59,642 nucleotides of DNA, filler included, from 6 parts of 6 records of this genome joined end to end with filler, not necessarily neighbours in it; one strand, 5' to 3'; positions 16,797 through 49,545 are shown, numbered from the whole stretch's first letter. The notes: generated by a model from the sequence alone, not told the origin. Numbers and translations are program-made.

Positions 16797-18734
16797 ATGC
16801 AGTATGTTTACTTAATTATGTTCTTAGTGAGTGGATATTATATATCTACTAGGATAAAAATATCTATTGAACATGGTGTGTTTATGTTTGCATGTTCTTC
16901 TTTTACTGTCTTGTTTTTACTGGGGCTTGCAGGCGCATTACAGGCAGGGGTAGGGTTGATATTTGGCTTTACATTTGTTTCATTTATTTTGTCAATTACT
17001 CATATTGTTAAGAACAAACCAAAATTATCAACAATATTCACTCCGGGTATTGTGATGATAATCATTGTCTTTATCACATATAGTATTGCTACCAATGGTG
17101 CTAGGATGTATCATTGGGATGAGGCAACACACTGGGGTACTACAGTAAAATATATTTATACGACAAATAAACTGTGGACATCTGGTCTACAAACCATTGG
17201 AATGCCGCTATTTAACTATTTAATTACGCAGGTAGCAGGGTACTCAGAGGATTTGCTTTATTTAAGCCAATGGTTCTTTCAGTGGATTTGCTTAAGCCTG
17301 ATAGTATCTCATGTCACATATAAGAATTGGATAAAAATAATAATCTTTGCCGTTGGTTCATATCTAGGCATAGCAACTATGATGTATTCTGGTCAGATAG
17401 CCCTGTATGCAGATATTGCTTTGGGTATAATGTCTGCAGGAATACTACTATCATGGTATTTTTCTAAACATCTTATTGAAAAAAATATTATTTGGTTAAC
17501 TCCTGCACTGTTTATGCTGGCACAGATGAAAAGTGGTACTGGTACGGCATTAAGCATAATTGTGCTAATAATAATTATGATTCTTAGCATGTATAATAAG
17601 ATTGAAAAGAAAAAATTAGTACTCTTATTAATACCAATGTCAATGATCTTTTTATCAGCTATACTTGCAGGCGGATTGTCAGATAGATTTTTGGGAGCAA
17701 TTGAGGGGAGAACAGGCAGCCTTGGGGAGATGCTCTTAGGCAGCAATTGGACTTATATAGCCATTGCTCTGACTATAGTTGCAATTATTTGTACTGGCTT
17801 CTTTCTATACAGGAAATATAAGAAACAGCCTGTAGCAGTTTTATTAGGGATAATTCCAGCAGTAGTATGCTTTATTGCTTGGATAGCAGTGGGAATTGCA
17901 GTTGGCGGTATGCGAGAAGGTATAGACATTCTAATGGTTGGGAGAACATTCCTGGGCTCTTATGGTAATCGGCTGGCCGTGTATATACCTATCTGGTTTA
18001 TGATTTTAAGTATATTTGTCGGCACAGTTTATCAGCTTAGTATAAAAACCGATAAAAAGAAAAATATACTGTTCTATAGTCTAATATGGAGCACAGGAGT
18101 TATCTATACCATTAGTATATTCCTGTCTTATATACTGGTATTTTCAGCCTTTGAAGCGAGCACATGTGCATCATTTGAACGATATATGGCGACAATCCTT
18201 ATATTTCTATTTATTAGCCTGCTGGCAAGTATATTCTTTACAGATGAAGAAAAGAATGTTCAAAAATCCAAGATACTGATGATTGTATTATTAGGGGTAT
18301 TTGCTCTGGTCACACTTATGTATCCCAAGGAGCAGAAAACTAGGTCTCTGGTTGCATATTCTAAGGAATTTACATCAACATTTAGAGATGAGCTGGCATA
18401 CAGTACACGTATTATAAATGAAAGTGTGCCTTTGGATGAAAAGGTATTTATCATAATTCAGGATGATGAGGGGTACTTGTACAATTGGTTTAAGTATGAG
18501 TTAGCACCCAGAAAAATAAATGGGGGTTACTGGAACTTTACAGGCAGTATGCTAAAGGATGACGGTGCCGACTGGCTCCTGGATTTTATGGAAGAGCAAG
18601 AGTACGATTATCTGTATATACATTACAGTTCTCCACAGCTAGAGAAAGCACTTGACAGTATATTTGAACCTGAAGTTATGGAAATCTCGTTTTATAAGCG
18701 TACAAATGATAGATTTGTTTTATACACAAACTGA
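16797..18734 (+). CDS. Polytopic membrane protein, GT-C glycosyltransferase-like
   Basis: More than 12 TM segments; loop motif HWDEATHWG; FERY; soluble C-terminal domain. Confidence 0.6.
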   Translation: MQYVYLIMFLVSGYYISTRIKISIEHGVFMFACSSFTVLFLLGLAGALQAGVGLIFGFTFVSFILSITHIVKNKPKLSTIFTPGIVMIIIVFITYSIATNGARMYHWDEATHWGTTVKYIYTTNKLWTSGLQTIGMPLFNYLITQVAGYSEDLLYLSQWFFQWICLSLIVSHVTYKNWIKIIIFAVGSYLGIATMMYSGQIALYADIALGIMSAGILLSWYFSKHLIEKNIIWLTPALFMLAQMKSGTGTALSIIVLIIIMILSMYNKIEKKKLVLLLIPMSMIFLSAILAGGLSDRFLGAIEGRTGSLGEMLLGSNWTYIAIALTIVAIICTGFFLYRKYKKQPVAVLLGIIPAVVCFIAWIAVGIAVGGMREGIDILMVGRTFLGSYGNRLAVYIPIWFMILSIFVGTVYQLSIKTDKKKNILFYSLIWSTGVIYTISIFLSYILVFSAFEASTCASFERYMATILIFLFISLLASIFFTDEEKNVQKSKILMIVLLGVFALVTLMYPKEQKTRSLVAYSKEFTSTFRDELAYSTRIINESVPLDEKVFIIIQDDEGYLYNWFKYELAPRKINGGYWNFTGSMLKDDGADWLLDFMEEQEYDYLYIHYSSPQLEKALDSIFEPEVMEISFYKRTNDRFVLYTN

Positions 18735-19406: not shown

Positions 19407-20600
19407 TTACTGAATCAACATATCAGATATGATATTGTATACTTTATCCACTATTGTATAGCTCTTCATCCACTGAGTAGGTCCCAGGACTACACTAAGT
19501 ATACAAGCAATTATTATAATGTATTTGAGAGATTGTATTTTGCTGTTTATTTTGTCTTGGATTTCTTTATCTACAGCATATACTACTAGCAATACTACGA
19601 AGTTATTAATTACGATATATCCTAACCATCTCATAGTATCTACAGCAATCAAATATGCTATAGTAGTTGAGAAACTCAGAAGTATTGTAATAGAGTATGC
19701 ACACTTTTTTTCTCTATTTGAATTGGATATTATACATTTCCACACACTAGCACTTACATATATAGTAGGGATCATCAGAATTATTGTTGCAATCAGATGT
19801 ATTGTTTTATCTAAAGTAAACTTATTTAATGTGTACATGATTTTTTCTGCTATTGGCATATAATATATGCTATAAACGTCATTTGCGGTCACTGCTACTT
19901 CTAATATATTATTGGATACATAGCTATAAAATACTTCTTGGCTTATTGCTGGCTGACCATAATGTATTATTATAATAAAGGTTAATATGCACGGCAGCAA
20001 GAATATAGCTAACTTTCTTGCAGTACTTTTAACTGTATGTTTATTAATTGAAATCACCATCAAAACAGCAAATAGGGTAGGTATAGAATATATTGCATAT
20101 CCCTCATGAATAATCATACCTAAAATCGACAGGATAATAACTACTGGTAAATATATATAGGATTTTAGCTTAAGAGACAGTACAATACATATATAGAACA
20201 GTACATTTAATACTACATCAAGCCTGCCGAACATAGATGATGTTAAATACCATTGTGTTATAAACGACTGGGATACAAATAGAATTAGTAGCAGTAGACC
20301 TGCTTGTGAATTTAGATTTTTCATTATTATAAACATAAAAAGACACAATGAAAGATAATAAATTATAGTTGAAATTGTTCCAATTATTATCATCTCACTG
20401 CTGGTAACACTACCAATAAATGATTGTAATATAGTTCCTAGCAGTCCTCTATATATAAATCCATTGTCATAGTTTACATTCCACTGTAATAGCATCCACG
20501 GATTAGTGTATGTTGGTAGGGTTCTTGGCAAAAATATTAAAATCCCAGCTATTATACATATGCATACGCTCGCTTTTCTAATACTGTTATCATTTCCCAT
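19407..20600 (-). CDS. Polytopic membrane protein, possible GT-C/polymerase-type
   Basis: About 10 TM; GFIYRGLLGT, GRLD, IHEGY motifs; AT-rich. Confidence 0.55.
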   Translation of the reverse strand: MGNDNSIRKASVCICIIAGILIFLPRTLPTYTNPWMLLQWNVNYDNGFIYRGLLGTILQSFIGSVTSSEMIIIGTISTIIYYLSLCLFMFIIMKNLNSQAGLLLLILFVSQSFITQWYLTSSMFGRLDVVLNVLFYICIVLSLKLKSYIYLPVVIILSILGMIIHEGYAIYSIPTLFAVLMVISINKHTVKSTARKLAIFLLPCILTFIIIIHYGQPAISQEVFYSYVSNNILEVAVTANDVYSIYYMPIAEKIMYTLNKFTLDKTIHLIATIILMIPTIYVSASVWKCIISNSNREKKCAYSITILLSFSTTIAYLIAVDTMRWLGYIVINNFVVLLVVYAVDKEIQDKINSKIQSLKYIIIIACILSVVLGPTQWMKSYTIVDKVYNIISDMLIQ

Positions 20601-20779: not shown

Positions 20780-20879
20780 NNNNNNNNNNNNNNNNNNNNN
20801 NNNNNNNNNNNNNNNNNNNNNNNTTAATTAATTAANNNNNNNNNNNNNNNNNNNNNNNNNNNNNNNNNNNNNNNNNNNN
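20780..20879. other. Artificial contig linker
   Basis: N44-TTAATTAATTAA-N44 (stops in all six frames). Confidence 0.98.
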
Positions 20880-20893
20880 ATTACTGCGTACAT
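20880..20893 (-). CDS. rplU: 50S ribosomal protein L21, 5' end (partial)
   Basis: ATG TAC GCA GTA AT (MYAVI) with GGAGGTG RBS, leader hairpin and strong promoter. Confidence 0.7.
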
Positions 20894-20914
20894 TGAGTTC
20901 ACCTCCGTATTTTT

Positions 20915-20955
20915 TCGCCAGCAATAGGTTGCTGAATTAGACCTTTGCTGTGCGA
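20915..20955 (-). ncRNA. L21 leader-like hairpin
   Basis: Minus strand TCGC-ACAGCAA-AGGT...ACCT-ATTGCTG-GCGA stem in the rplU 5' UTR. Confidence 0.55.
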
Positions 20956-20979
20956 GCTCCGCTGTTGCGTAGCCGTAGT

Positions 20980-21008
20980 ATAATATCACAAGTTATATTG
21001 TTTGTCAA
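20980..21008 (-). promoter_or_regulatory. Sigma70-type promoter for rplU
   Basis: TTGACA-17 bp-TATTAT with an extended TG. Confidence 0.75.
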
Positions 21009-21029
21009 GGTGTTTTACTTATTTTTTAG

Positions 21030-21575
21030 TTATATTTTAAGCCCCGTAAACCCGAACATAATCATAGCTATAATACTTACACTAAGATAATATACAAATT
21101 CAGGATTTAATTTTTCGGCTTTTGTTTCGATTCTTTCATACAAATCAGATAAAAGAATAAAACTAATAAAAAGAAAAATCCCATTTAGTAATGCAAATAT
21201 CAAACCTTCAAGTATAGTGAGATTATCACCATACAGAAATATATTTAAAAAAATCACGTTTAGTAAAACAAATCTTTTTATCACCTGGAACTCTTTAAAA
21301 AACAATCCTACTAAATAAACTAAAAGTATTATTATCGAAGAGTTTATTATTAGATTCAGATCATCTAATTTAAAAAGAAGCAGAACAAGTTTATCTATAT
21401 AAAAAATTATAGGTACTGTTAACACAAATACAAGCGTTACATACGAAGAAAATCTAAATATTTTTTTAGGTGAGTTTTCCATCATTAAAGGCAATTCCAC
21501 CCCCATAAAAAATTTAAACATAAAATTATTTAATAAAAGAAGATAAAAAAATGATCTAATAATTTCTTTTAGCAT
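21030..21575 (-). CDS. Divergent RnfA-like membrane subunit (no Cys)
   Basis: LLNNFMFKFFMG N-terminus and IIAMIMFGFTGL C-terminus match RnfA; last gene of the rnf cluster. Confidence 0.7.
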   Translation of the reverse strand: MLKEIIRSFFYLLLLNNFMFKFFMGVELPLMMENSPKKIFRFSSYVTLVFVLTVPIIFYIDKLVLLLFKLDDLNLIINSSIIILLVYLVGLFFKEFQVIKRFVLLNVIFLNIFLYGDNLTILEGLIFALLNGIFLFISFILLSDLYERIETKAEKLNPEFVYYLSVSIIAMIMFGFTGLKI

Positions 21576-22095
21576 TTTTCCCCTCCCTCTTTTTCAAATG
21601 ATCTAAAAACGCTAATAGAAGTGTACATGCCAGTAGGCCCCCTGAACTATAATTAAAAAGTAAAATCCCTTCATAATTTTGTAATAACTCAAAAGAAAAA
21701 ACAGAACCAAAAGTTATTAGTTCTCTTATTACTCCTAAGACAATAATTATAGCTCCTGTTTCTAACATGTAAGCGATCTTACTCAGCTTTCCTGCTATTT
21801 TTATTCTTTCCATTACAATATAAATACTCAAAAACATAATGTTAGAGTATTTTATCGGCAGATACCAATCGAAATTCAGATAGTTCAAAGCAAAGTTAAT
21901 AAGTACTATTTGTAATACAAAAATGAAAAATCTTAGAAAAAACAAATTCTCATCTCTCAATAATTTATTAATCAAAAATGAATTAAAAATTAAAGCCATT
22001 GACATTATTAAAGTTAAAATAGCTGATTCTGCATTTCTTGTTCCAAGCACTAAAACTAGCAAAGGATAATATGTATAAATTGATTTTCCAGACAT
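21556..22095 (-). CDS. Divergent RnfE-like membrane subunit
   Basis: GVIRELITFGS motif, about 6 TM, position after rnfG; conserved CP and NC cysteines absent. Confidence 0.7.
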   Translation of the reverse strand: MSGKSIYTYYPLLVLVLGTRNAESAILTLIMSMALIFNSFLINKLLRDENLFFLRFFIFVLQIVLINFALNYLNFDWYLPIKYSNIMFLSIYIVMERIKIAGKLSKIAYMLETGAIIIVLGVIRELITFGSVFSFELLQNYEGILLFNYSSGGLLACTLLLAFLDHLKKREGKNAKRNY

Positions 22096-23693
22096 TATGC
22101 ATCACCAGCTTCACTTTCATCCTCAGCCACTATCTCTTCAGTCTCCAAGTTCTCGACTTCTAAGTCATCATCTTCAAACTCTTCAAAGTCCTCAAAATCA
22201 AATTCATCTAATTCATCCATTAAAACATATTCATAACTCTCAAGTACTGACATAATCTCTTTATAAGCATTTAAGAAAGTAAATGTTGCTCCTGTGTAAG
22301 CATCTACTGATTTATCAAATTCATACGTCAAATCTCTACCCTTCCACAAACTTGTCCATTCTTCACTTTGAACTTGAGCACCTAAACCAAGAGTTTCATT
22401 CTGTTCAAGGACTTTTAATCCGGTGATCACACCATCTAAATCTATTCCCATAATTATTTTTACCATATCAGTTGAGTAACCTTTGCTCTCAAAGATAACT
22501 AAATGCCCCAGTAACTCATCATCTTTATTAATTGGTTGAAAATAATAACCTTCATCACTTAATTTAGCTTCTGATGCTTCCCCCGCTTCAACACCTTCGC
22601 CAAAAAGAAGCTCTAATTTTTCATCTCTGATTTCAGTTTCTTTTTTCACTTCATATTTCTCAATTAACTCATCAATCTCAAAAACTCCATAACTAAGAAC
22701 GAAAACGACTATAATAGTTATAAGAAATATCAAAACTTTTTTCATATTATGTTTCCCTCCAAAACTTCTTGGCAATGTATATTTATTAATCGTTGGTACA
22801 CAAATATTTGCTATTAAAATTGCAAAAGTAACACCTTCAGGTTGTGATGTAAATTTTCTAATAAAATACGTAAAAATTGCAACTAGTACAGAATAAAGTA
22901 TTAGACCTATATTTGTATAAGGTGAAGTAACCATATCAGTAAGCATGTAAACAGCTGCAAAACAAACTCCACCTGTTAATACATATAAAAAAGGCGATTC
23001 TCCACTAATAAAATACATTGTGCCCAAAGTTAGTAATAAAATTATTGGAACTTTAATCTTAATATGTCCCTTTAATTTTAAATAAACAGCTCCTAAAATT
23101 ATCGCTACAAGGGAAACTTCTCCCATTGATCTAATTAACTGACTATTTCCATAAAGCAGGCCTTTATAAAAAGTAGCTTTTCCTCCAAACATATCAAAAA
23201 CAACATCATTCCCAATATATTTAAGTAAAGGAAAGACACTTGCGCCACCTATACCATCAACTTGTGTATAATCATAAACATATTGAGGAAAAGATATCAT
23301 TACAATTAATCTTCCAACAAGTGCAGGGTTAAAAATATTTTTTCCAACTCCCCCAAACAGTATCTTTCCAATTAGTATAGAGGCAACTGATCCCACTATT
23401 ATTACTTTAAAGGGAACTGTTACCGGCAAAGTTAAAGTAAACAGCACTGTTGTAACTATACCACTTCCGTCAAAGCTTTGATTCTCTAATCCCAATGCCT
23501 TAGAGCTAATATATTCTGTTAGCAAACCACTTAAAACAGCTGTGATAAGCAACAAGGCTACTCTATACCCATAGATAATTATTGACATAATTATCACAGG
23601 CAACAATGCAATTACCACATCATACATGGTGCTTTCCATTGTAAAAAGTGTTCTAATATGTGGTGAAACACCTACTGTTTTTTTACTCAACAT
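22095..23693 (-). CDS. RnfD-RnfG fusion protein
   Basis: RnfD motifs (SPHIR, FGGVGKNIFNPALVGR, TDMVTSP, PEGVTFAILIAN) followed in frame by a TM anchor and FMN-binding domain (KGYS, NETLGLG, DAYTGAT); acidic tail. Confidence 0.88.
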   Translation of the reverse strand: MLSKKTVGVSPHIRTLFTMESTMYDVVIALLPVIIMSIIIYGYRVALLLITAVLSGLLTEYISSKALGLENQSFDGSGIVTTVLFTLTLPVTVPFKVIIVGSVASILIGKILFGGVGKNIFNPALVGRLIVMISFPQYVYDYTQVDGIGGASVFPLLKYIGNDVVFDMFGGKATFYKGLLYGNSQLIRSMGEVSLVAIILGAVYLKLKGHIKIKVPIILLLTLGTMYFISGESPFLYVLTGGVCFAAVYMLTDMVTSPYTNIGLILYSVLVAIFTYFIRKFTSQPEGVTFAILIANICVPTINKYTLPRSFGGKHNMKKVLIFLITIIVVFVLSYGVFEIDELIEKYEVKKETEIRDEKLELLFGEGVEAGEASEAKLSDEGYYFQPINKDDELLGHLVIFESKGYSTDMVKIIMGIDLDGVITGLKVLEQNETLGLGAQVQSEEWTSLWKGRDLTYEFDKSVDAYTGATFTFLNAYKEIMSVLESYEYVLMDELDEFDFEDFEEFEDDDLEVENLETEEIVAEDESEAGDA

Positions 23694-23714
23694 ATCTCCT
23701 CCCGAAGCTTTTAT

Positions 23715-25004
23715 CTATTTTTTAAGAGTAGAGAATCCAAACCAGATAGCCTCCATCATCGGTTGATTCACCGGACAAATATATTGACAGCTACTGCAAC
23801 GAATACATTTCCTTAACTCAAATTTTTCCATCTCACTAAATTTTTTAGTCTTAAATAACTCTACATATTTTAGAGGAACCAGTCCCATCGGGCAAACATC
23901 TAAACATTTTCCGCACGAGATACACTCTTTACTCCGATAAGGTTTAACATCTTTTTCGGTCAAGCCTAATAAACCGTTAGTTCCTTTGATAACAACTTCA
24001 TTTTCATCTGAAATTGCAAAACCCATCATAGGTCCTCCAAGAATCATCTTATATAACTCTTCTCTATCAACTTCACAATAATCTAAAATGTCTTTAACAG
24101 ATGTTCCTAATTTCACTTTTAAATTTTTAGGATTCCCCACTGCATTTCCTGCGACAGTTACAATTCTTTCGATTAAAGGTTTCCCAAGCTGAACTGCTTC
24201 GTAAATTGCAGAACATGTAGCAACATTTAAAACTAATATTCCATAGTCAATTGGTAAAGCACTCATCTCTTTGTTAAAGATACTTTGAAGCATTTGCTTC
24301 TCTCCACCCTGCGGGTACTTAGTATGAAGTTTTGCTATTCCTATACTCTCGTCTTGAGATACTCTTCCTTTTAATTCTTCAATAGCCTGAGTTTTATTAT
24401 CTTCAACAGCTATTATCACTTTAGGGATATTAAACACATTCTGAATAAGTTTTATTCCCTTAAGCAGTAGGCTCGCATTTTCAAGCATAAGCCTGTTATC
24501 TGCATTTAAATAGGGTTCACACTCCACTCCGTTAATTACAAGCGTTTTTACAGATTTATTCTCCGGGATTGCCAATTTTTTATATGTTGGGAACATCGCC
24601 CCACCCATCCCTACAATTCCGGCTTCTTGAATAATTCTTAAAAACTCTTTTTTACTTAAGTTTTCAATTTTTTTTCTTTCATGATAATTTATATGCTTAA
24701 ATCGCTTATCATTTTTTATAACAACTCCCGTTATATGAGAGCCTGTTCTATTTAGCCTTATATCTACTTTTTCAACATTACCCGAAATGCTCGAATGAAT
24801 CCATGGAGCGTTTTCAGATTTTGCAATTACTTGACCCGCTTTAACATACTCCCCCTCTTCAACACAAACAACAGCTTCCTCACCGATATGTTGTCTCAGA
24901 GGGATAAAAACATCATTAAAATTTTGAAATTCCTCTATTTTTAATTTCTCTGTTTGTCGTTTTCTATCAGGTGGATGAACTCCTCCTCTAAACTTCCTAA
25001 ACAT
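23715..25004 (-). CDS. rnfC: Electron transport complex subunit RnfC
   Basis: FRGGVHP, GIVGMGGAMFPT, NGVECEPYL, KYPQGGEK, two CxxCxxCxxxCP motifs. Confidence 0.95.
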   Translation of the reverse strand: MFRKFRGGVHPPDRKRQTEKLKIEEFQNFNDVFIPLRQHIGEEAVVCVEEGEYVKAGQVIAKSENAPWIHSSISGNVEKVDIRLNRTGSHITGVVIKNDKRFKHINYHERKKIENLSKKEFLRIIQEAGIVGMGGAMFPTYKKLAIPENKSVKTLVINGVECEPYLNADNRLMLENASLLLKGIKLIQNVFNIPKVIIAVEDNKTQAIEELKGRVSQDESIGIAKLHTKYPQGGEKQMLQSIFNKEMSALPIDYGILVLNVATCSAIYEAVQLGKPLIERIVTVAGNAVGNPKNLKVKLGTSVKDILDYCEVDREELYKMILGGPMMGFAISDENEVVIKGTNGLLGLTEKDVKPYRSKECISCGKCLDVCPMGLVPLKYVELFKTKKFSEMEKFELRKCIRCSSCQYICPVNQPMMEAIWFGFSTLKK

Positions 25005-25020
25005 TATGTCCTCCTACACG

Positions 25021-26196
25021 CTACAATCTATGTAGCAACATCTCTTCCAAATCTGAATCGGATAAATCTATCGGATTATTTTTATTCCCGGTTTTTTTGA
25101 TTATTTTATTAAGATCTTTTTTCTTCACACCATATTTAGATAATTTTGGAATTCCCAAAGATTTTAACATTTTATCTACTTCTAATTCCAAAGCCTTACA
25201 CGCAGCGCTGATACCTAAATCCTCTTCACCAGAGAATAACTTACCTACTTCAGAATATTTGTGCAGATACTTGCTATATTTACCCGGTGATTTTTCCATT
25301 TTCTTAACATTAATTTTTATCCATTCACCTATCAAAGTTCCACAGACTACACCGTGAGGAATATCTACGAAACTCCCTATAGAGGCTGCAAAACCATGAA
25401 CTGTTGCTAAACCTGCATTTGCAAGAACAATTCCTGAAAGATATGCCGCGTAAGCCATTTTTGCTCTGGCTTCAATATCATTTCCTTCATTATAAGTTTT
25501 TAGCAAAGCTTCCTTTACACACTTTAACCCTTCAAGTGCTAAAGCATCAGTAAACTCATTAGAAGAAGTTGATAGATACCCCTCTAACAGCTGTGCAAAG
25601 GTATCCATTCCACTAGCTGCAGTTATACTTTTAGGACATTTTATTATTAATTTCGGATCAATTATCGCACATTCCGGTACAAATTTTTCATGCCTTAGAG
25701 ACTTCTTAAAACCATCTGAACCAATTTCACTAATTACAGCATTTTTTGTAGCTTCACTTCCTGTTCCGGATGTTGTCGGGACAGCAATAAAGGGAATTTT
25801 TTCCCCATCATGTGTTTTACTACCTACAACTTCCAAATACTCTTTTACTGATTCCCCTTGCTTAGGAAGCATTGCTGAAACAGCTTTCCCTGCATCAAGT
25901 ACGCTTCCTCCACCTATTGCTACAACAACTTCAACTATTGTATCCTGATAATTAGAAGTTATTCTATCAATCACTTCCGGTGAAGGTTCAGTTTTTATAT
26001 TTTCCACATTCATTATTATTCCGGCTGTTCTAAATATATCTTTTAATTTATCAAAATTTTTACTCTTTTGAAAGGATTCTCCTCCAACAATAAGCAATAT
26101 TTTATTACCATATTTTAATACCTCTTTGTCTATTTCATCAAAACTGCCCTCTCCGAAATGCAGTTTTGGTATTCTTGAAATCGTAAAACTCTTCAA
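25021..26196 (-). CDS. Iron-containing alcohol dehydrogenase
   Basis: GGGSVLDAGK, PTTSGTGSE, HGFA...HG metal ligands; TTG start with GGAGGG RBS. Confidence 0.9.
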   Translation of the reverse strand: MKSFTISRIPKLHFGEGSFDEIDKEVLKYGNKILLIVGGESFQKSKNFDKLKDIFRTAGIIMNVENIKTEPSPEVIDRITSNYQDTIVEVVVAIGGGSVLDAGKAVSAMLPKQGESVKEYLEVVGSKTHDGEKIPFIAVPTTSGTGSEATKNAVISEIGSDGFKKSLRHEKFVPECAIIDPKLIIKCPKSITAASGMDTFAQLLEGYLSTSSNEFTDALALEGLKCVKEALLKTYNEGNDIEARAKMAYAAYLSGIVLANAGLATVHGFAASIGSFVDIPHGVVCGTLIGEWIKINVKKMEKSPGKYSKYLHKYSEVGKLFSGEEDLGISAACKALELEVDKMLKSLGIPKLSKYGVKKKDLNKIIKKTGNKNNPIDLSDSDLEEMLLHRL

Positions 26197-26370
26197 GCCA
26201 ATCCCTCCAATCATTTTATTCAAACTTCTATTTCAGTCTACCATAATTTATTCATCATTTCAATTTATAGTGAACTATTACTAAATACTGTTCACCTTTA
26301 ATTCTTTGGTTTTTACTAATATTGTGTTACTATTATCTTGCCTAAAAAAAATAATTAGAGGTGAAAATTT

Positions 26371-27237
26371 ATGATATATAAAAAATTGGGAAAGTCAGAC
26401 TTAAATGTGTCTGTATTAGGTTTTGGATGTTGGGCCACTGCAAAGCATGGCTGGAAAGATGTTAATCAAGAAGAAGCAATTAAAACTCTTGAAAAAGGAT
26501 ATGAAAACGGAATAAATTTCTTTGATACTGCTCCAATTTATGGTTTTGGAAAATCTGAAGAGATACTTGGAGAAGTCTTTGGCAGTGTGAGAAATAAAGT
26601 ATATATTGCAACCAAAGCTGGGCTTCGTTGGAATGATTATGGAAAGGTAACACATAATTTAAAGAAAGACAGTATTTTATTTGAAGTTGAAAATAGTTTG
26701 AAAAGACTAAAAACTGATTATATCGACCTGTATCAAATTCACTGGCCGGATAATCAAACTCCTATCGAAGAATCAGTAGAGGTTCTGCTTAAACTAAAAA
26801 AAGAGGGGATTATTAAAAACATTGGTGTTTCTAATTTCTCTTTAAATTTATTAAATAAAGTTAAAAATGAAATTGTCTCAACTCAGGACCAGTATAACAT
26901 GCTACAAAACTCTGTAGAAAACGAAATTTTGCCATTTTGTGACGAGAATAATTTAGGTTTTATAGCATATAGTCCACTGGCACAAGGTTTATTATCCGGA
27001 AAAGTTAAAAGAGACTATACTTTTGGAAAAGGTGATATTAGAAGATTCAATCAATTATTCAAAGACAAGAAACTATTTGATAAAATTGAAGCAATTGAGA
27101 AACCTCTTGTTAAAACATCTATGGAATATCTGTTAAAGAACAAAAATGTTACTTCTATTTTAACAAGTATGACAAAAGAAAAACACTTAATAGAAAACAT
27201 AAAAATAATTGAAAATTATATGAATAGCAAGATTTAA
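26371..27237 (+). CDS. Aldo/keto reductase
   Basis: FFDTAPIYG, ATKAG, DYIDLYQIHWP, IGVSNF, AYSPLAQG. Confidence 0.93.
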   Translation: MIYKKLGKSDLNVSVLGFGCWATAKHGWKDVNQEEAIKTLEKGYENGINFFDTAPIYGFGKSEEILGEVFGSVRNKVYIATKAGLRWNDYGKVTHNLKKDSILFEVENSLKRLKTDYIDLYQIHWPDNQTPIEESVEVLLKLKKEGIIKNIGVSNFSLNLLNKVKNEIVSTQDQYNMLQNSVENEILPFCDENNLGFIAYSPLAQGLLSGKVKRDYTFGKGDIRRFNQLFKDKKLFDKIEAIEKPLVKTSMEYLLKNKNVTSILTSMTKEKHLIENIKIIENYMNSKI

Positions 27238-27247
27238 TTTTACAAAA

Positions 27248-27283
27248 AATAACAAGATCCGCCGGATGGCGGATCCAGTTATT
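27248..27283. terminator. GC-rich hairpin after AKR (terminator or REP-like)
   Basis: AATAAC-aa-GATCCGCC-ggat-GGCGGATC-ca-GTTATT. Confidence 0.55.
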
Positions 27284-27307
27284 AAAGAGAAGTTAATAAA
27301 GGGATTA

Positions 27308-27407
27308 NNNNNNNNNNNNNNNNNNNNNNNNNNNNNNNNNNNNNNNNNNNNTTAATTAATTAANNNNNNNNNNNNNNNNNNNNNNNNNNNNNNNNNNNNN
27401 NNNNNNN
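27308..27407. other. Artificial contig linker
   Basis: Same N/TTAATTAATTAA/N linker. Confidence 0.98.
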
Positions 27408-34711: not shown

Positions 34712-34811
34712 NNNNNNNNNNNNNNNNNNNNNNNNNNNNNNNNNNNNNNNNNNNNTTAATTAATTAANNNNNNNNNNNNNNNNNNNNNNNNNNNNNNNNN
34801 NNNNNNNNNNN
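34712..34811. other. Artificial contig linker
   Basis: Same linker. Confidence 0.98.
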
Positions 34812-41119: not shown

Positions 41120-41219
41120 NNNNNNNNNNNNNNNNNNNNNNNNNNNNNNNNNNNNNNNNNNNNTTAATTAATTAANNNNNNNNNNNNNNNNNNNNNNNNN
41201 NNNNNNNNNNNNNNNNNNN
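41120..41219. other. Artificial contig linker
   Basis: Same linker. Confidence 0.98.
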
Positions 41220-41309
<90 letters not shown>

Positions 41310-42676: not shown

Positions 42677-44830
42677 TTAAATGATTTTCTTTAAACTACT
42701 ATATGAATTTGATTCTGTTAAATCTGATGTTGCACCATCTTTTTCAATAATGTAAACATTTTTAAAATCAAACTCTTTTAATGAAGATTTATCTACAATG
42801 TTTTGACCGTCTTTATAAGTAAATAAATCTTTAGTCATCACAATGCTTTGCTCAAACTCTTCATCAAGAATTTTATAATACAGTTTTGTAGTACCATCAT
42901 CTAATGCGGATGTAGGTGCATCAGAAATAAAAGGATAGGATTTATTTTTATACTCGTTAGATATAAGAACAATAGCATTGATTATGCACATCTTCATAAG
43001 AGTAACATGACCTGTGTTTATATCACGATTGTTGTTTTCATTGTCTAAATCAATAAGTTTTATAATATAACTATCTCTATCAATTAATATCCTTCCATTG
43101 ATTACTTTGTTTGCTTTAGTTGTTTTAGCCAATATCTCATTTGCTTTATCTTCTATTCTAGTAATCAATTTATTAAACTCGGTTTCTTTGGTTTTGATAT
43201 AAATATCTTGAATTTCATATAAGTAAGTTAGAATCTTTTCTTCCTTATATTCTTTATTTGTTTTTGTTGGTATTTTATCTAATTCTTCCTTTTTACGCTT
43301 TAAATCCTGTTTGTGCCGATAAATATTATCATTTAAGTTTTTTATTTTGCTTTTGATAATATCCTTTTCTTTGATATTGTAATTGTACTTATTCTTCTCT
43401 AAAGAAAAACTATCGATTATTTTATTACCATGCTTTTCCTGAAGTAAAGTTATTTCATCATTTAGCTCATTGATTTTAGCCAAAATTTCATTTTTTCTGT
43501 TGTTAAGTTCCTTGTTTTTCTGAAGGTTATTAACGATATCTGATTTAATTGATTTAACCTTTGCTAGTAAAGTTGGTTTATTTGAAAGAATATCAACTAC
43601 TTTATTGTTAATTGCTAGCTGTTCTCTGTTTTTTTGTCTAAATTCTTCAATTTCACCAGTCGCTATTTTATATCTATTCTGTATATTTTTAAATGCATCA
43701 CTTTCTTTATCAAATTTTTCCCCACAAATATAGCATTCCAAATTGTCTAACATTTCTTTTAAATATTTTGGGTCTGGTATGTTATATGGAAGACCAGTAG
43801 GATTATTATTCTGATTTTCCTCAAACCACTTTTGGAAAGAGTGCAATTTATCAAAACCAGCATTCATTAATGCATCAGTTCCAAACAATACCCAATGTTT
43901 AGAGAATAAATTGCTTACATTTTTGTCATAAGACTCAATCTCTTCGAAAACAAATTTTCTTTCTCTCTCTAACCTGTCCTTTTTATTTTTTAATTCGATG
44001 AACTCATTAATATCGTCAAGCCTTTTGTCAATATCATCAATAACTTTTTCTATTTGTTGTAACTCTGTATTCGCATTATCTAAATTCTCCTGGAATTCGG
44101 GGAGCTTCCTTTCGAGATTGTCAATTTCATAGCTTATTCTATTAAACTCCCTTTCGTTAGAAGTATCTCTTTTTTTCTCCTTTCTTAAAGTCTTTTCAAT
44201 TTTATCAATTAATTGCTCAACAATCGTAATGTTTTTATCATAGTAGCCAATATATGAGATGTAGTTAATTGCATCTTTAAAAGACTTCCCATTACTTATA
44301 TCTATCAATTCATTTAAAGTCTCACCTTGAAACCAGATGTATTTACTTATTTCTTTTGGAAGAAGCTTTTTTACAATATAATCTCTCGCCTCAAAATGGT
44401 TGTCAATATTAATTCTGTTGCCTTCAGAATTATCGAATGAAACAATTAATTCCTCATTTAAGAATTGCCAATTCTTTTCTGAGTTGTAATCTTCGTCATT
44501 CTTTTTCTTGATTTCAAAACACCTACAAACAGTGTAGTCCTTATCACTTTTTACATTTAGTACAACTTCAGCTTTAACTTTGTTATTTTCTAATGCATCC
44601 TTTAAAGATTTCTTATTAAATATTGAAAGGAAGTTAGAAGAATCAATACTGCACCAACCGTTTTCAGTCCTGTATATTTCCCCAAAAAAGTTCCAATAAA
44701 ATGCATTAAATAATTTTGATTTGCCAGCACCGATTGTGCCTAATAATAAATTTAGGTTCTTATTTAAATTTATTGAACTTCGGTCAAAATATGATTGAAA
44801 GTTTTCAATAGTTATTTTAGTCAAATGCAT
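42677..44830 (-). CDS. PbeC-like SMC/Rad50-type ATPase
   Basis: ITIENFQSY, Walker A GTIGAGKS, FQGE Q-loop, coiled coils, CYICG hook, Walker B ISDAP. Confidence 0.85.
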   Translation of the reverse strand: MHLTKITIENFQSYFDRSSINLNKNLNLLLGTIGAGKSKLFNAFYWNFFGEIYRTENGWCSIDSSNFLSIFNKKSLKDALENNKVKAEVVLNVKSDKDYTVCRCFEIKKKNDEDYNSEKNWQFLNEELIVSFDNSEGNRINIDNHFEARDYIVKKLLPKEISKYIWFQGETLNELIDISNGKSFKDAINYISYIGYYDKNITIVEQLIDKIEKTLRKEKKRDTSNEREFNRISYEIDNLERKLPEFQENLDNANTELQQIEKVIDDIDKRLDDINEFIELKNKKDRLERERKFVFEEIESYDKNVSNLFSKHWVLFGTDALMNAGFDKLHSFQKWFEENQNNNPTGLPYNIPDPKYLKEMLDNLECYICGEKFDKESDAFKNIQNRYKIATGEIEEFRQKNREQLAINNKVVDILSNKPTLLAKVKSIKSDIVNNLQKNKELNNRKNEILAKINELNDEITLLQEKHGNKIIDSFSLEKNKYNYNIKEKDIIKSKIKNLNDNIYRHKQDLKRKKEELDKIPTKTNKEYKEEKILTYLYEIQDIYIKTKETEFNKLITRIEDKANEILAKTTKANKVINGRILIDRDSYIIKLIDLDNENNNRDINTGHVTLMKMCIINAIVLISNEYKNKSYPFISDAPTSALDDGTTKLYYKILDEEFEQSIVMTKDLFTYKDGQNIVDKSSLKEFDFKNVYIIEKDGATSDLTESNSYSSLKKII

Positions 44831-44839
44831 ATTCTAAAA

Positions 44840-45034
44840 TTATTTGGTAAATAAGTCGTAAAGTTTATTTTCAACATAGTTAATAGCGTCTCTGTCTGTT
44901 TTTTCATTATCAAATGCTCTTACAGATTGATAGACTATCAGCTTATTTATTTGACTAAGTTTTTTATTATCCAGGTTATCTTTTTCTTGAAACAAATTGC
45001 TTATTTCTTGAATGATTTTTTCCTCTATTTCCAT
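44840..45034 (-). CDS. PbeB-like small protein
   Basis: 64 aa between helicase and ATPase with 4- and 9-bp gaps; assigned by synteny. Confidence 0.6.
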   Translation of the reverse strand: MEIEEKIIQEISNLFQEKDNLDNKKLSQINKLIVYQSVRAFDNEKTDRDAINYVENKLYDLFTK

Positions 45035-45038
45035 ATCG

Positions 45039-47288
45039 TTATTGGTTACAAATATTGTCAATGTTCAAATTGTCTTCAATGAGAGAGATTAAATCGATAC
45101 TATATTTAATTGCAAGCTCGCCCAATTTCCCATTTAAGACCTGATGTCTATTTTCAGCTGCATAAAGAAAATTCGCTACTCTTCGTAATTCATTTTGGAA
45201 GATTCTAATCTCCATGTCTTTTAAATCCTGTGGGAGAGAATCAATAAAACTTTCTTGAGGGGCAACAATAATATCATAAATATTAGCATAGTTCTTACCT
45301 TCAGACTTTCTTAGTACACGACCTCTTCTTTGGATGTACTGTCTTGGATTGCCTGTACTTGCACAAAAAATTGCATTTTTTGTAACTGGTATATCAACAC
45401 CCTCATCTAAAATTTTCATAGCAAGTAGTACATCAATTTTTCCATTCGCAAATTGGTTAAGCACTCGTTCTCTATTGGGAGTACCTGATAATAATTCATG
45501 AGTCGAATACCCAAATGCCCTTATCGCTTCACCATATTTCCTAATCAATCTTCTTTCATCATTGTCATATGAGATTATATCTGCACTAGAAAAATCAGTA
45601 TCCTGACCTTCTGGAACATATACGAATGTGTATTTAAGATTCTTCTCCTTATTATTAACATCTATAAAAATATCTTGAAGAATTTTGATTTTATTTTCCG
45701 CTTTATTGATTATTCTTTTTCGTTCTATTAAAAGCCTTTTCCCATAATCATTAAATTCTCCTTTCTTTGAGTCATAATTAAGAATTAATTTTTCAGATAT
45801 TGTTTTGTAATCAATCAACTCTTCTTCGTTAAGAGAAGCAAAATAAGGATAGTAATAGTATTGAACTAAACTTGCATGTTCAGCATTTATCGCTTTATAC
45901 ATTGAGTATGAATAGGTATAACATGGAGGATATGAATTAAAATATTCATATATTTTGTCAGAGCCATAATCATCATAGATTCTTTCCGGGGTAGCAGATA
46001 AGCCTATTCTCTTGTTGATTTTACCTGGAAGGTTTTTTAAACTTTGAGATGCTCCCAAATTATGAGCTTCGTCCGCAATAAGTATAAAATTCTCCCAACC
46101 CTTTTTCTTAGAAAGTTTTCTAAATTTATTACCGTTGTAACTTTGATAAGTAGAAATGAATATCAAGCTATCATTTAATCCTAATTGTATATTTAAAAAA
46201 TGATTACTTAAGATGTTAAACCATTCCTTTTCTTGAGTTGAATGAATATTTTGAAAGTTAAACTTATTTACTTCACTAATCCACTGTGAAACTAAGGCTC
46301 TAGTGGGGACTAAAACTAATACATTATAGTTCCCAGATTTTTTAAATTCTTCAAGAACACAATTTAAAGATGTAATTGTCTTTCCTGTGCCAGTTGCCAT
46401 AGCAAAAATACCTTGGCAGTTATTTTTTGTCCAATTCTCGTAAGCTTTATTCTGATAATCTCTAGGACCTTGTGAGAATGGAAATTTTGGTGATAAATTC
46501 TTCTTGTTCAACTTGTTATGAATTTCAGCAACTTTTATTTTAATGCTTTCAGGATATTCCGATGATTCTTCACTTAATTCTTTCATCTCATCAAGTAAAT
46601 CAAATGAATTATTAACTGAGAATGAATCCCGAATGGTGGTTTTGACTTTACTTATAGGGATTATTTTAATGTTCTTAGCTTCACCAGTCCATGCTTTTAG
46701 AAATACATTTTCAAAATATTCTAGCCTTTCGGTGTCGCTCTTACTACTAGACCAAGATTTGTAACAGCTTATTGACTCAATATTATTTAGTAAAGCATTG
46801 CGTGAAAAATTGGCAGAGCCATTAAATACAACTTTATTATTTGCCTCGTCTGTAAATACTCCAAATTTGTTATGAGCAATTCCTCCTTTTTCATTTGATG
46901 GTATTGTCGCAATAAATTCAATTCTATTCTTTGAAATTAAATAAGATAAACATTTAAAAAAATGAGTATTGCGTTTTGAAAATGTTTTGGTTAATGTATT
47001 TAAGTCAGATAAAACATTTTTTTCTATCGTATCAACTTCATTTTTAATCCCCTTTTCAATAGCTTTTTTATCTTCAGGAGATAATACATCATTAATAATG
47101 ATTCTCATTTTGCCTCCCCGATGAATAAAATAAGCAAAACCAGCACTTAAAACATTTATCGCAGATGAACTAAAATAACCTAATCCCAAATCGAAACTTA
47201 TGCTTTCCATAAGAGCATCGAAGAAAAACTCAATGGGTTCGTTTTCTCCCGTGGAATAGACTATATGAAATGGGATGTCTTTTAGCAT
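45039..47288 (-). CDS. PbeA-like PLD-nuclease/SF2 helicase (phosphorothioation-associated restriction component)
   Basis: GYFSSS, PLD HNK...GSAN, MATGTGKT, DEAH, SAT, LDEGVDIP, QRRGRVLR. Confidence 0.88.
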   Translation of the reverse strand: MLKDIPFHIVYSTGENEPIEFFFDALMESISFDLGLGYFSSSAINVLSAGFAYFIHRGGKMRIIINDVLSPEDKKAIEKGIKNEVDTIEKNVLSDLNTLTKTFSKRNTHFFKCLSYLISKNRIEFIATIPSNEKGGIAHNKFGVFTDEANNKVVFNGSANFSRNALLNNIESISCYKSWSSSKSDTERLEYFENVFLKAWTGEAKNIKIIPISKVKTTIRDSFSVNNSFDLLDEMKELSEESSEYPESIKIKVAEIHNKLNKKNLSPKFPFSQGPRDYQNKAYENWTKNNCQGIFAMATGTGKTITSLNCVLEEFKKSGNYNVLVLVPTRALVSQWISEVNKFNFQNIHSTQEKEWFNILSNHFLNIQLGLNDSLIFISTYQSYNGNKFRKLSKKKGWENFILIADEAHNLGASQSLKNLPGKINKRIGLSATPERIYDDYGSDKIYEYFNSYPPCYTYSYSMYKAINAEHASLVQYYYYPYFASLNEEELIDYKTISEKLILNYDSKKGEFNDYGKRLLIERKRIINKAENKIKILQDIFIDVNNKEKNLKYTFVYVPEGQDTDFSSADIISYDNDERRLIRKYGEAIRAFGYSTHELLSGTPNRERVLNQFANGKIDVLLAMKILDEGVDIPVTKNAIFCASTGNPRQYIQRRGRVLRKSEGKNYANIYDIIVAPQESFIDSLPQDLKDMEIRIFQNELRRVANFLYAAENRHQVLNGKLGELAIKYSIDLISLIEDNLNIDNICNQ

Positions 47289-48643
47289 TAATTATCTTGT
47301 TCTTTAATGTTAATACTGTTCCATTCTTTGTATTCTTTTAGATATTTTTCTTTAAAAGTTTCCTCAAAAACAGAATATGATGTACAATCAAAGAATGAAA
47401 TTCCTTCAATAAATGCCTCTTTTATTTTAGAAATACTTCCAGCACTTCCTTGTCCACTAAATGGTTCTAGGTCAACGTTCTCTATTCCTTCTAAATATGA
47501 TTTTAAACTATCCTTATCCAATTTAATTAACTTGGCAGCATCTTTTTCAAATTTCTCAATAAAAAGTATTGGGAATAATAGTTGTAGAGCTTTAATCAAT
47601 GCAGCAACTCCCATTCCTTTAGATAAAATACTTTCATTTGGTTCATTCCAATCATCTCGTAGCTCTTTTACAGCATTAAAAAAGCGCATGATAAATTTTA
47701 CAATTTCAATTTGTAAATCTTTGTGTATGAAGTAATATAGGAAGCAAGGTTGGTATAAGCTATTGATCGACTTTTTGGATATTGTTTTAATTAATTCATC
47801 AATAATAAATGCTTGCGAAATAGAATATAAATAACGACCCTCTGCATTTTTAGGTATTTTGCCTAGCATTTTAATTCTATGGTGAAATGGACTCTTTTCA
47901 TATTCATTCAGAAGTCTAGTGAAATTGTGTAAAACAGTAATCTCATCAATTTCATCACTAAACTCACCCATCAGGTGATATAAAATAGATTTATTTACTG
48001 GTTTTTGTTCATAGTTAATTGTGTAAAATTGTTGGGCGACAATAGCTCGATCAAATCCAATGAATAGTGATAATAAGATTTCATATTCAAAATTATCATC
48101 ATTTTCAACAGTCTTAAAATACTCCTTTAATCCTTCTAATCTATGTTGCCCATCAATAACTAAAATTGACTTTCCAACGATAGGTATAAAAACGTGTTGC
48201 TTATTCTCTAATTGAACAAAATAAGAGGCAGTTGTACTTTCATTTCCTGAGTTTGAAGTTATGAAATCTCCAATTTCTTCATCTTCTGGTATTTCGATAC
48301 ATTCTATTGTACAGATAATTGTATTTGGGAAGAATGCATATTCATTAGTATTTATATAATCTTTAATCTTTTTTACCCGGCTTGTATCTTTATCCCTTTG
48401 AAAATCAGTTTGCTTTTTTTTATTCCTTACAATAGTATCATAATAGTCTTTTTCATCAATATTTTTCTCAGCTAATTCCGAATACTTCTTAATATCATAC
48501 TCAGCTGGACTCACAGTAAACATTTCTACTATCTGCTTCGCTGGTGCTTTTGCAATATGAAAAAAATGTTCTTTTTGATTTACTTTTATTATTTCTAATG
48601 AAAGAAAATTGACTCCATTTATATTTAATATTTTGCTATTCAT
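47288..48643 (-). CDS. DGQHR-domain (DndB-related) protein
   Basis: FQR, FPNTII, VIDGQHRL, FYTINYEQKPV. Confidence 0.9.
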   Translation of the reverse strand: MNSKILNINGVNFLSLEIIKVNQKEHFFHIAKAPAKQIVEMFTVSPAEYDIKKYSELAEKNIDEKDYYDTIVRNKKKQTDFQRDKDTSRVKKIKDYINTNEYAFFPNTIICTIECIEIPEDEEIGDFITSNSGNESTTASYFVQLENKQHVFIPIVGKSILVIDGQHRLEGLKEYFKTVENDDNFEYEILLSLFIGFDRAIVAQQFYTINYEQKPVNKSILYHLMGEFSDEIDEITVLHNFTRLLNEYEKSPFHHRIKMLGKIPKNAEGRYLYSISQAFIIDELIKTISKKSINSLYQPCFLYYFIHKDLQIEIVKFIMRFFNAVKELRDDWNEPNESILSKGMGVAALIKALQLLFPILFIEKFEKDAAKLIKLDKDSLKSYLEGIENVDLEPFSGQGSAGSISKIKEAFIEGISFFDCTSYSVFEETFKEKYLKEYKEWNSINIKEQDN

Positions 48644-49148: not shown

Positions 49149-49152
49149 GCTA

Positions 49153-49545
49153 TTATATTTTATTTAATCCTTCTTCTATTTTTTCAATAACAAAATCAAA
49201 TCCATCCAAATTTGGGTTTTCTTCTAATTCTTCATTTATCAATTCTAAACCATCATCAATATGCATCTTGATATATTTCGGAATGTCCTTATCCGTTTTA
49301 TATAAACCATAATGAACACATGCCAAAGAAACATAATAAGGAAGGTTGTTGCCAAAAAGAACAGCCTTACTATATTCTTTGCCTTGTGAATTTTTTATTT
49401 CAGATAAATCCAAAATTCTTTCCCGAGACAATGAATATGTATATGCAATTCTGGCAATTATATTTTCAGTTCCCAGATTAAGTTTCCTGGTAAGTTTTGA
49501 TACCAGTTCCCGATTTTCTTTTGAGGTTTTAATGTGTGTGAACAT
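49153..49545 (-). CDS. dndE: DNA sulfur modification protein DndE
   Basis: ENIIARIAYTYSL, GKEY, HIDDGL; follows dndD. Confidence 0.85.
   Translation of the reverse strand: MFTHIKTSKENRELVSKLTRKLNLGTENIIARIAYTYSLSRERILDLSEIKNSQGKEYSKAVLFGNNLPYYVSLACVHYGLYKTDKDIPKYIKMHIDDGLELINEELEENPNLDGFDFVIEKIEEGLNKI

Follow-up and report, generated by a model that had tools for sequence, protein, structure and literature searches.

In a 59.6-kb stretch of DNA (the window, by which we mean the whole stretch analyzed), we identified a minus-strand gene cluster that is a paralog of the operon for Rnf, the canonical RnfCDGEAB complex. The cluster, here called half-Rnf, retains rnfC and a fused rnfD and rnfG, encodes altered relatives of RnfE and RnfA that have lost the cysteines for the intramembrane [2Fe-2S] cluster and has no rnfB beside it. 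We read half-Rnf, with a probability of about 0.6, as a functional Rnf paralog that would keep only the NAD(H)-side electron path, with the RnfE- and RnfA-derived proteins as a cofactor-less scaffold. Primes mark its genes and products (C', D'::G', E' and A' for short), which are arranged as follows:

23715–25004, minus strand: rnfC', 429 aa, NADH- and flavin mononucleotide (FMN)-binding subunit with two [4Fe-4S] motifs
22095–23693, minus strand: rnfD'::rnfG' fusion, 532 aa
23238–23258, minus strand: flavinylation-type motif DGIGGAS in the RnfD part (aa 146–152; motif scan), with Ser where Thr is usual
22284–22304, minus strand: flavinylation motif DAYTGAT in the RnfG part (aa 464–470; motif scan), inside the FMN_bind match
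22098–22277, minus strand: acidic C-terminal tail of the RnfG part, 60 aa, 43% Asp+Glu
21556–22095, minus strand: rnfE', 179 aa, RnfE-derived membrane protein with both cluster cysteines gone
21030–21575, minus strand: rnfA', 181 aa, RnfA-derived membrane protein without Cys; stop codon at 21030–21032

As summarized in a 2025 review (PMC12174285), electrons in Rnf run from ferredoxin through RnfB, the RnfA/E [2Fe-2S] cluster, the FMN of RnfG, the FMN and riboflavin of RnfD and the Fe-S clusters and FMN of RnfC to NAD+, and the membrane-subunit cofactors are said there to be strictly conserved. For Acetobacterium woodii Rnf, RnfA C25 and C113 together with RnfE C25 and C108 are reported to ligate the [2Fe-2S] cluster, mutation of these four cysteines to abolish ferredoxin-dependent NAD+ reduction and growth and, in the accompanying model, the TM4a/TM4b loops to form a Na+ site (10.1101/2024.06.21.599731). 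Reviews of Rnf and Nqr treat the four membrane subunits, too, as strictly conserved and put the cluster between A and E at the core of electron gating, with one model giving it the same place in Na+ pumping.

None of the four ligand cysteines is present in the window's E'/A' pair (0/4). The original prediction, made from the sequence alone, had noted an RnfA-like protein without Cys and an RnfE-like protein with one, had taken the A/E cysteines as holders of the intramembrane cluster, in line with the A. woodii data, and had proposed an alignment to establish whether all four were lost. They are, and by more than substitution. In MAFFT alignments with the canonical RnfA and RnfE of two Fusobacteriota genomes, site 1 of A' is substituted and its site-2 half-helix deleted (9–13 residues), while the site-1 stretch of E' is deleted (7 residues) and its site-2 stretch deleted or replaced; three of the four ligand-bearing segments have thus been removed or exchanged as a whole. 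Relative to the solved RnfA chain 7zc6_A, 'GICPFLG' aligns to 'GVELPLL' of A' and the Cys of 'TTNCAVLG' to a gap. The single Cys of E', residue 157 of 179, is remote from the ligand positions. All four positions are lost in every one of the 11 Fusobacteriota copies with E' and A' and also in the database proteins P0001, P0002 and P0004 (A') and P0003 (E'). No alternative metal ligand is conserved among the 11 copies, site 1 of A' being E, T, N, D or G.

Both proteins fall below family cut-offs: A' scores 19.3 against 229.3 for NCBIfam rnfA and 22.9 against 23.8 for Pfam Rnf-Nqr, and E' scores 17.4 against 213.4 for rnfE, over its C-terminal part only. Their ancestry emerges from profiles and fold. 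Compared using hhalign, A' matches canonical Fusobacteriota RnfA over its full length (probability 97.8, E = 1e-12, 182 columns), and it also matches 7zc6_A (E = 4.7e-7). E' matches canonical RnfE over the C-terminal 62 columns (hhalign, probability 90.8, E = 1.2e-6), and profile–profile comparison of E' with canonical RnfA gave no match. An AlphaFold model of E' (predicted local distance difference test score, pLDDT, 66.4) had only RnfE/NqrD chains as its 11 best Foldseek matches, among them 7zc6_E (E = 2e-3, TMq 0.66), and the next match outside this group had E >1.5. A protein-cluster atlas placed E' best with Rnf-Nqr clusters (score 0.92), which we use as a lead only. A structure prediction for A' with E' scored 0.52, the best of three controls reaching 0.00, and its runs agreed in at least 85% of contacts (partner pLDDT at least 72, alignments unused). 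We do not count this prediction as evidence: an RnfA/E complex has already been solved, so the pass may reflect likeness. In calibration, 51 of 78 solved complexes attained the mark, as did 2 of 108 mismatched pairs, but scores of 0.60 or below were those of only 5 of the 78 solved complexes and of all 4 mismatches that passed.

The NAD(H)-side modules look intact, as had been predicted for the RnfC 4Fe-4S motifs and the DAYTGAT site of RnfG. RnfC' is a complete Rnf subunit: it passes the TIGR01945 cut-off (490.9 against 245.95 bits), contains the Pfam domains Complex1_51K, RnfC_N, Fer4 and SLBB and aligns to the RnfC chain 7zc6_C over residues 4–425 (340 bits) with both CxxCxxCxxxCP motifs kept. 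The fusion protein comprises an RnfD membrane domain (aa 7–312), a single linking transmembrane helix, a periplasmic FMN_bind domain (aa 410–473) and the acidic 60-aa tail, with PF03116 and PF04205 as its only Pfam domains. Its RnfD domain is complete (PF03116, 269 bits; TIGR01946, 224.5 against a cut-off of 207.05; 159 bits to 7zc6_D). The RnfG part passes PF04205 (FMN_bind; 40.7 bits, cut-off 22), reaches 31 bits to 9eri_G and lies below the NCBIfam rnfG cut-off (47.6 against 102). DGIGGAS aligns with 'ldgvttat' of 7zc6_D. ApbE is reported to recognize the 7-residue sequence D-x-x-[S/T]-G-A-[S/T], to accept Ser and to flavinylate tags best at protein termini (PMC12052999); by this rule, the Ser of DGIGGAS would be the FMN-carrying residue.

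Since the path upstream of RnfG is missing and that from RnfG to NAD(H) looks intact, the complex could only link NAD(H) to the flavin that RnfG' would carry in the periplasm and to a partner docking there. Electrons would be exchanged between cytoplasmic NAD(H) and RnfC' with its FMN and two [4Fe-4S] clusters, between RnfC' and the covalent FMN of the RnfD' domain, between RnfD' and the FMN bound covalently to the periplasmic RnfG' domain of the fusion and, finally, between RnfG' and a periplasmic partner. The ferredoxin-side path would be gone with RnfB and with the [2Fe-2S] ligands and half-helix loops of E' and A', which may act as a cofactor-less membrane scaffold for D'::G' or have another non-redox role. 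Ion pumping of the kind proposed for A/E appears unlikely for such a complex. The original prediction had proposed much the same, namely no canonical ferredoxin:NAD+ transfer and a link through RnfC-D-G to an extracytoplasmic partner with A/E as scaffold, and that proposal is supported by the cysteine loss above and by the selection on E' and A', their drop-out from some loci and the additional periplasmic flavinylation motifs or FMN_bind proteins of relatives, all described below.

To place the cluster, we searched for homologs among 5.8 billion clustered proteins. A' had two close homologs (65% and 64% identity, each 181 aa and without Cys), E' had one (57% by BLASTP, 56% in the alignment; 179 aa, without Cys) and the fused D'::G' had P0024 and P0025 at 67–71% identity. 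The closest homologs P0002, P0003 and P0024 lie on one 13.4-kb contig. An A' profile run against 1.84 billion representatives returned only 21 matches at E ≤1e-3. Among 18 more distant A' matches aligned and judged by eye, with P0019 and P0023 left out, 11 lacked Cys at both sites, two lacked it at one and five had both, in a sample biased by the Cys-less query. Scanning genome contigs with the window's D'::G' retrieved no relative; with P0028–P0030, it retrieved one 2.9-kb contig, labeled as belonging to a Fusobacteriaceae metagenome-assembled genome, which gave entry into Fusobacteriota genomes.

We surveyed 190 Fusobacteriota species genomes, in 111 of which an RnfD match at E ≤1e-60 was present. 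A fused D'::G' read through without a stop in 18 of the 190, with rnfC' directly upstream in all 18. The arrangement C'-D'::G'-E'-A' without B, which is that of the window, was found in ten (G096, G004, G005, G097–G101, G105 and G106), four of which (G004, G005, G105 and G106) also share the window's rnfA'-rplU-ysxB-rpmA order. In five others (G001, G124, G125, G129 and G133; loci L030:8527–8979, L031, L032, L033 and L037), the place of E'/A' is taken by a gene for a thioredoxin-like [2Fe-2S] ferredoxin of NuoE type (PF01257, 107 bits, scanned in G125; G001 shows the first 54 aa only, at a contig end). These NuoE-type loci are a further reduced form of half-Rnf. The remaining three, G102–G104, have neither E'/A' nor a NuoE-type gene beside C'-D'::G'. 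E' and A' are therefore dispensable for the C'-D'::G' core, having been dropped in eight genomes. The window fits this half-Rnf family of Fusobacteriota, with rnfC' followed by the fused rnfD'::rnfG', Cys-less E' and A' and no rnfB at the locus.

Canonical rnf genes also occur in all 18 carriers of the core (window's genome outside this count), as a second RnfD match in 17 and, in G001, as a partial rnfD followed by rnfGEAB on another contig. All 17 canonical loci that we read (16 plus that of G096) have the gene set rnfCDGEAB, and their A and E each keep both Cys motifs; 13 of these loci come from paralog carriers, and rnfB was seen in the 14 carriers whose canonical locus was read. By comparison, the half-Rnf loci of the 18 relatives contain no rnfB. 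The same holds for the window, as originally predicted: none lies next to rnfA' or upstream of rnfC', and tblastn with canonical RnfB found none in the 59.6 kb. Since the contig carrying the cluster covers only window positions 20880–27307 (6.4 kb) and ends 150 nt past rnfA', a contig end that the original prediction had missed, this absence is established for the locus rather than for the genome.

Sequence features of the relatives extend the periplasmic side of the scheme. One to three motifs of the form DG.GGA[TS] occur in 14 of the 19 D'::G' tails, with three DGEGGAT copies in those of G097, G100 and G101; the tails without such a motif are those of the window, G096 and G102–G104. By the ApbE rule, these natural D'::G' tails may be flavinylated. 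G096, whose tail has no motif, instead encodes, 175 nt upstream of rnfC', a divergent secreted 181-aa protein without a Pfam match (L019:5157–5702, minus strand) that carries two DGLGGAS motifs, one directly after the signal peptide, and is a candidate small flavinylated partner of half-Rnf. Among 637 other open reading frames (ORFs) of the loci and the window, the motif occurs in just four, all related to flavinylation: the G096 secreted protein, a small G133 protein, a canonical RnfD and a canonical RnfG. The G133 protein sits where G124, G125 and G129, whose upstream flanks we read, have two to three small, paralogous secreted proteins 5' of rnfC'. Three of these were scanned, and FMN_bind was weakly present in two (22.7 and 17.7 bits, cut-off 22) and absent from one. 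As the window's tail has no such motif and the 6.4-kb contig of the cluster no gene for a periplasmic partner, the link to a periplasmic acceptor rests on these relatives.

We also noted that the window's tail (22098–22120) ends in ...DESEAGDA, the P0024 and P0025 tails similarly in TGDA and TGDV, and those of G004, G005, G105 and G106 in DGEAG[AS][ST]. The window's tail end has the look of a terminal flavinylation motif that has degenerated and lost its Ser/Thr acceptor.

With regard to direction, NADH oxidation with outward electron export is favored, since this direction can run without energy input and since the coupling element has been lost. The best-surviving alternative, to which we give a low probability, is the reverse, in which a periplasmic donor (a reduced flavoprotein or small reductant) would feed electrons through RnfG', RnfD' and then RnfC', reducing NAD+. 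Nothing observed fixes the direction; electrons in canonical forward Rnf are described as flowing from G through D and C to NAD+ (PMC12174285), and the NuoE-type gene beside RnfC' in five relatives recalls reversible NuoEF-type modules. However, it is hard to name a periplasmic donor whose potential is low enough for NAD+ reduction with no input of energy, the cluster-gated alternating-access element that might have supplied coupling is deleted, and the precedent described for partial NQR/RNF systems runs outward from NAD(P)H (PMC8238504).

The maintenance of E' and A' was assessed from their evolution. Nei–Gojobori ratios of nonsynonymous to synonymous substitution rates (dN/dS) were calculated on orthologs from eight pairs of relatives, more distant pairs being saturated. 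In pairs with dS below ~1, they were 0.05–0.08 for C', 0.08–0.11 for D'G', 0.08–0.17 for E' and 0.10–0.13 for A'. E' and A' are thus under purifying selection in the relatives, and their reading frames are intact in all 11 copies. For the window's own lineage, equal lengths at 64–65% (A') and 56–57% (E') identity, alongside 67–71% for D'G', offer indirect indications of selection. Across six inter-genus genome pairs, canonical RnfA is 75–87% and RnfE 63–72% identical, compared to 20–34% for A' and 22–34% for E', which makes these the least conserved subunits, the reverse of the canonical order. This reversal fits the loss of a cofactor site with looser remaining constraint and does not fit neutral decay.

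Purifying selection on proteins without cofactor ligands is also what would be seen if E' and A' had acquired a new non-redox function, such as an ion or small-molecule channel or flavin export, that is itself the reason for the operon's retention and is driven or gated by electron flow through RnfC-D-G. Charged residues conserved within the predicted membrane segments, for example 'LEY' and 'MER' of E', add to this possibility. Nevertheless, no motif beyond a few Gly, Asn and Phe spans all 11 copies and eight genomes do without E'/A', and we consider such a function somewhat less probable still than the reversed direction.

It is very improbable that half-Rnf still acts as a ferredoxin:NAD+ oxidoreductase, with RnfB borrowed from the canonical operon and an E'/A' metal center held by non-Cys ligands. 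The canonical genes of the core carriers, including the rnfB genes seen among them, would make such borrowing feasible, and the first Cys of A' has given way to Glu in G096 and the window's clade. Still, with three of four ligand segments deleted or replaced, no substitute ligand conserved across the 11 copies, eight genomes that keep C'-D'::G' without E'/A' and E'/A' the least rather than the most conserved subunits, the observations argue against it.

A decaying rnf duplicate heading for loss, which the original prediction had offered as a second option, is contradicted for the family and is the least probable alternative: the subthreshold scores of E' and A', their loss in some lineages and the degenerate-looking tail of the window would suit it, but its paralog part alone holds, since all four frames are intact in 11 of 11 copies, close homologs have equal lengths, dN/dS is ~0.1, gene overlaps suggest translational coupling, the architecture is kept across lineages with D'G' only 36–52% identical to the window's and a similar end state was reached in another phylum. 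The comparison of syntenic copies and their dN/dS that had been proposed for deciding this point thus came out for retention, with the same architecture in 10 of the 190 genomes and ratios of 0.08–0.17 for E' and A'.

That other phylum is represented by metagenome loci around P0074, a protein assigned by one source to 'Firmicutes bacterium'. L038–L041 and L043 contain rnfC, an rnfD::rnfG fusion with further FMN_bind domains (677–802 aa) and RnfE-like and RnfA-like genes. In L040 (L040:6613–11167), compared residue by residue, LGLCP has become IGLVP, VNC has become VNG, GICP has become GIYA and NCA has become NSA; all four cysteines are substituted one for one (V, G, Y and S) within otherwise kept motifs. 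A regular-expression scan found both Cys motifs absent from L038, L039, L041 and L043, and no rnfB lies within 8 kb on either side of L040, L041 and L043. The other scanned loci holding A and E genes all scored as canonical RnfA/E, with Cys motifs in most and rnfB in many; those with neither motif had over-long called ORFs, to which the position-limited scan does not apply. L045 is similar to these Bacillota-type clusters.

In an RnfC tree of 47 sequences with a midpoint root, all Fusobacteriota group together (support 100/99). A branch (99/92) separates off the canonical copies; the 18 paralogs opposite them are united at a support that is not decisive (82/62), and the window is sister to G096 (100/99). 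The Bacillota-type copies lie outside, among other phyla (94/93). If both kinds of half-Rnf are constrained to a single clade, the log-likelihood drops by 33.7 units (approximately unbiased (AU) test, p = 0.011). Since a single clade is rejected, the Bacillota-type state apparently originated independently. Within Fusobacteriota, we read the tree as suggesting one early duplication with later loss of E'/A' in some branches.

A broader interpretation, which we advance tentatively and rate as somewhat less likely than not to hold in all its parts, would join these strands. Half-Rnf may be a distinct, recurrently evolved, RnfB-independent and probably non-pumping NADH:periplasmic-flavin oxidoreductase, in most members with a disordered, acidic multi-flavin arm. 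As parts of that one interpretation, 7-residue 'flavin tags' on the tail would pass electrons to periplasmic acceptors, the Cys-less E' and A' would be the first Rnf/Nqr D/E-type subunits kept for a non-redox role and the cluster would be a living counterpart to the rnfCDGEA stage through which Na+-NQR is postulated to have originated.

Several points weigh against our reading of half-Rnf as a functional NAD(H)-side paralog. Its weakest point is the scaffold role of E' and A', as lasting selection on cofactor-less proteins is not explained by a scaffold alone, and confidence in the E' model is moderate. The window's own tail has no extra flavinylation motif, and its 6.4-kb contig encodes no periplasmic partner. 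Flavin attachment, electron flow and direction are each something that we infer from sequence. A trans-acting RnfB or another input module may exist elsewhere in the window's genome. The dN/dS values come from relatives, the window's lineage lying outside the pairs. Finally, the branch uniting the 18 half-Rnf RnfC' sequences has the above-mentioned support of 82/62 in a midpoint-rooted tree, and the group for the AU test was named after the tree had been seen.

The window itself is built from at least six draft contigs, with N44-TTAATTAATTAA-N44 linkers between them that have stops in all six frames, so genes flanking a linker are not shown to be genomic neighbors. One DNA sequencing run contains a 6,428-base contig identical to window positions 20880–27307; this run is probably the source of the sequence and gives no independent support. 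None of the runs listed as containing the stretch is of RNA. Further features of the window are the following:

20780–20879, 27308–27407, 34712–34811, 41120–41219 and 53089–53188: linkers
25021–26223, minus strand: Fe-dependent alcohol dehydrogenase (Fe-ADH; PF00465, 144 bits; PF25137, 121 bits)
20980–21008, minus strand: promoter-like site for rplU, TTGACA-17-TATTAT with an extended TG, 11/12, the best of the contig
20880–20893, minus strand: first 14 nt of rplU (MYAVI...), with ATG at 20893, cut by the contig end
49529–51658, minus strand: DndD-like protein (243 bits, slightly below the cut-off of 245.85)
45039–47288, minus strand: Dnd-system restriction enzyme domain (389 bits)
42677–44830, minus strand: SMC-like ATPase

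At the cluster itself, Fe-ADH ends 16 nt 5' of rnfC' on the same strand, and co-transcription is possible. The gap from rnfC' to rnfD'::rnfG' is 21 nt, the start of rnfE' overlaps the stop of rnfD'::rnfG' by 1 nt and rnfA' overlaps rnfE' by 20 nt. With these spacings, Fe-ADH through rnfA' looks like a single operon. We rejected this cytoplasmic Fe-ADH as a conserved partner of the cluster because upstream genes differ in every relative examined. Further upstream, on the opposite strand, is an aldo/keto reductase gene (Pfam). On the other side, the promoter-like site begins 22 nt after the rnfA' stop, and the cluster is thus bounded by Fe-ADH and the promoter-like site of rplU, as described in the original prediction; as a class, such promoter-like sites are no commoner than in shuffled sequences (31 versus 29.8). 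Between this site and the rplU start lies a leader of ~90 nt (20894–20979). Rfam at gathering thresholds found no match over the window, the L21 leader included, and 20894–20979 could be a ribosomal-protein leader of a type absent from Rfam.

Two other parts of the window were noted in passing. The contig preceding that of the cluster encodes two large polytopic membrane proteins, of 645 aa (16797–18734, plus strand) and 397 aa (19407–20600, minus strand), neither with a Pfam match. A DNA phosphorothioation defense neighborhood occupies 42677–51658 on the minus strand of the contig at 41220–53088.

If our reading is correct, the existence of a conserved paralog without the [2Fe-2S] cluster and RnfB shows that the C-D-G half can stand as a module of its own, a state at which evolution appears to have arrived at least twice. 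Half-Rnf would offer a natural dissection of the two half-paths of Rnf, allowing roles of A/E beyond cluster holding to be asked about, and natural examples of short flavinylation tags in a predicted disordered tail. It is a candidate link from NADH to periplasmic or cell-surface redox chemistry in Fusobacteriota and in the Bacillota-type lineage. As for annotation, metabolic reconstructions should leave half-Rnf clusters out of their count of ferredoxin:NAD+ oxidoreductases. The full-text literature that we searched contained no description of an RnfB-less Rnf with Cys-less A/E, although the supplementary cluster tables of PMC8238504, which lay outside that search, may list some unremarked.

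Among known systems, canonical Rnf (RnfCDGEAB; 7zc6, 9eri and 8ahx) shares with half-Rnf the NADH/FMN site and two [4Fe-4S] motifs of RnfC, the RnfD and RnfG motifs and the order C-D-G-E-A, and E' and A' are homologous to RnfE and RnfA by sequence profile and fold. Half-Rnf differs by the absence of rnfB from the cluster, the lost [2Fe-2S] cysteines, the fusion of D and G and the status of E'/A' as the fastest-evolving subunits.

The two-subunit NQR/RNF-like systems are likewise partial Rnf/Nqr derivatives with a single path retained. As described by Meheust et al. 2021 (PMC8238504) and Huang et al. 2024 (10.1101/2024.03.13.584918), they pair an RnfG-like protein with a fusion of an RnfD-like domain and an NqrF-type NAD-binding domain (PF00175), and electrons have been proposed to pass through them one way, starting at NAD(P)H and ending at an extracytosolic FMN domain. 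In these accounts, they occur mainly in Actinobacteria and the candidate phyla radiation, without RnfC or A/E and without conservation of the RnfD-like flavinylation Thr. Half-Rnf, by contrast, takes RnfC' as its input subunit, retains the motif of its RnfD part and has D and G fused, with degenerate E' and A' still present; PF00175 was not detected in its cluster by Pfam.

Meheust et al. 2021 (PMC8238504) also described RNF clusters, defined by RnfB, with multi-flavinylated RnfG, which they interpreted as a bifurcation of complete Rnf. Half-Rnf resembles these in the extra periplasmic flavin sites of RnfG as a branch to extracytosolic acceptors, especially in L038–L043 with their RnfG plus further FMN_bind domains. 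Unlike them, it lacks RnfB and the A/E cluster, and its extra sites in Fusobacteriota are short linear motifs in an acidic tail rather than FMN_bind domains.

Na+-NQR provides an evolutionary parallel, having been postulated to derive from an rnf duplicate in which rnfB was lost (Reyes-Prieto et al. 2014, PMC4014512). In that account, Na+-NQR kept the NqrD/E cysteines and their cluster, emptied NqrA, the RnfC homolog, of cofactors and recruited NqrF, whereas RnfC' keeps its cofactor motifs and E' and A' have lost the cluster. The nqr models score far below their cut-offs in half-Rnf (nqrA, 51.1 against 321; nqrB, 99.3 against 350), and Pfam and NCBIfam revealed no NqrF-like gene in the cluster. 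As a duplicated rnfCDGEA without rnfB, half-Rnf nonetheless has exactly the form of the postulated intermediate and gives the proposed ancestor of Na+-NQR, an rnf duplicate without rnfB, a concrete analog.

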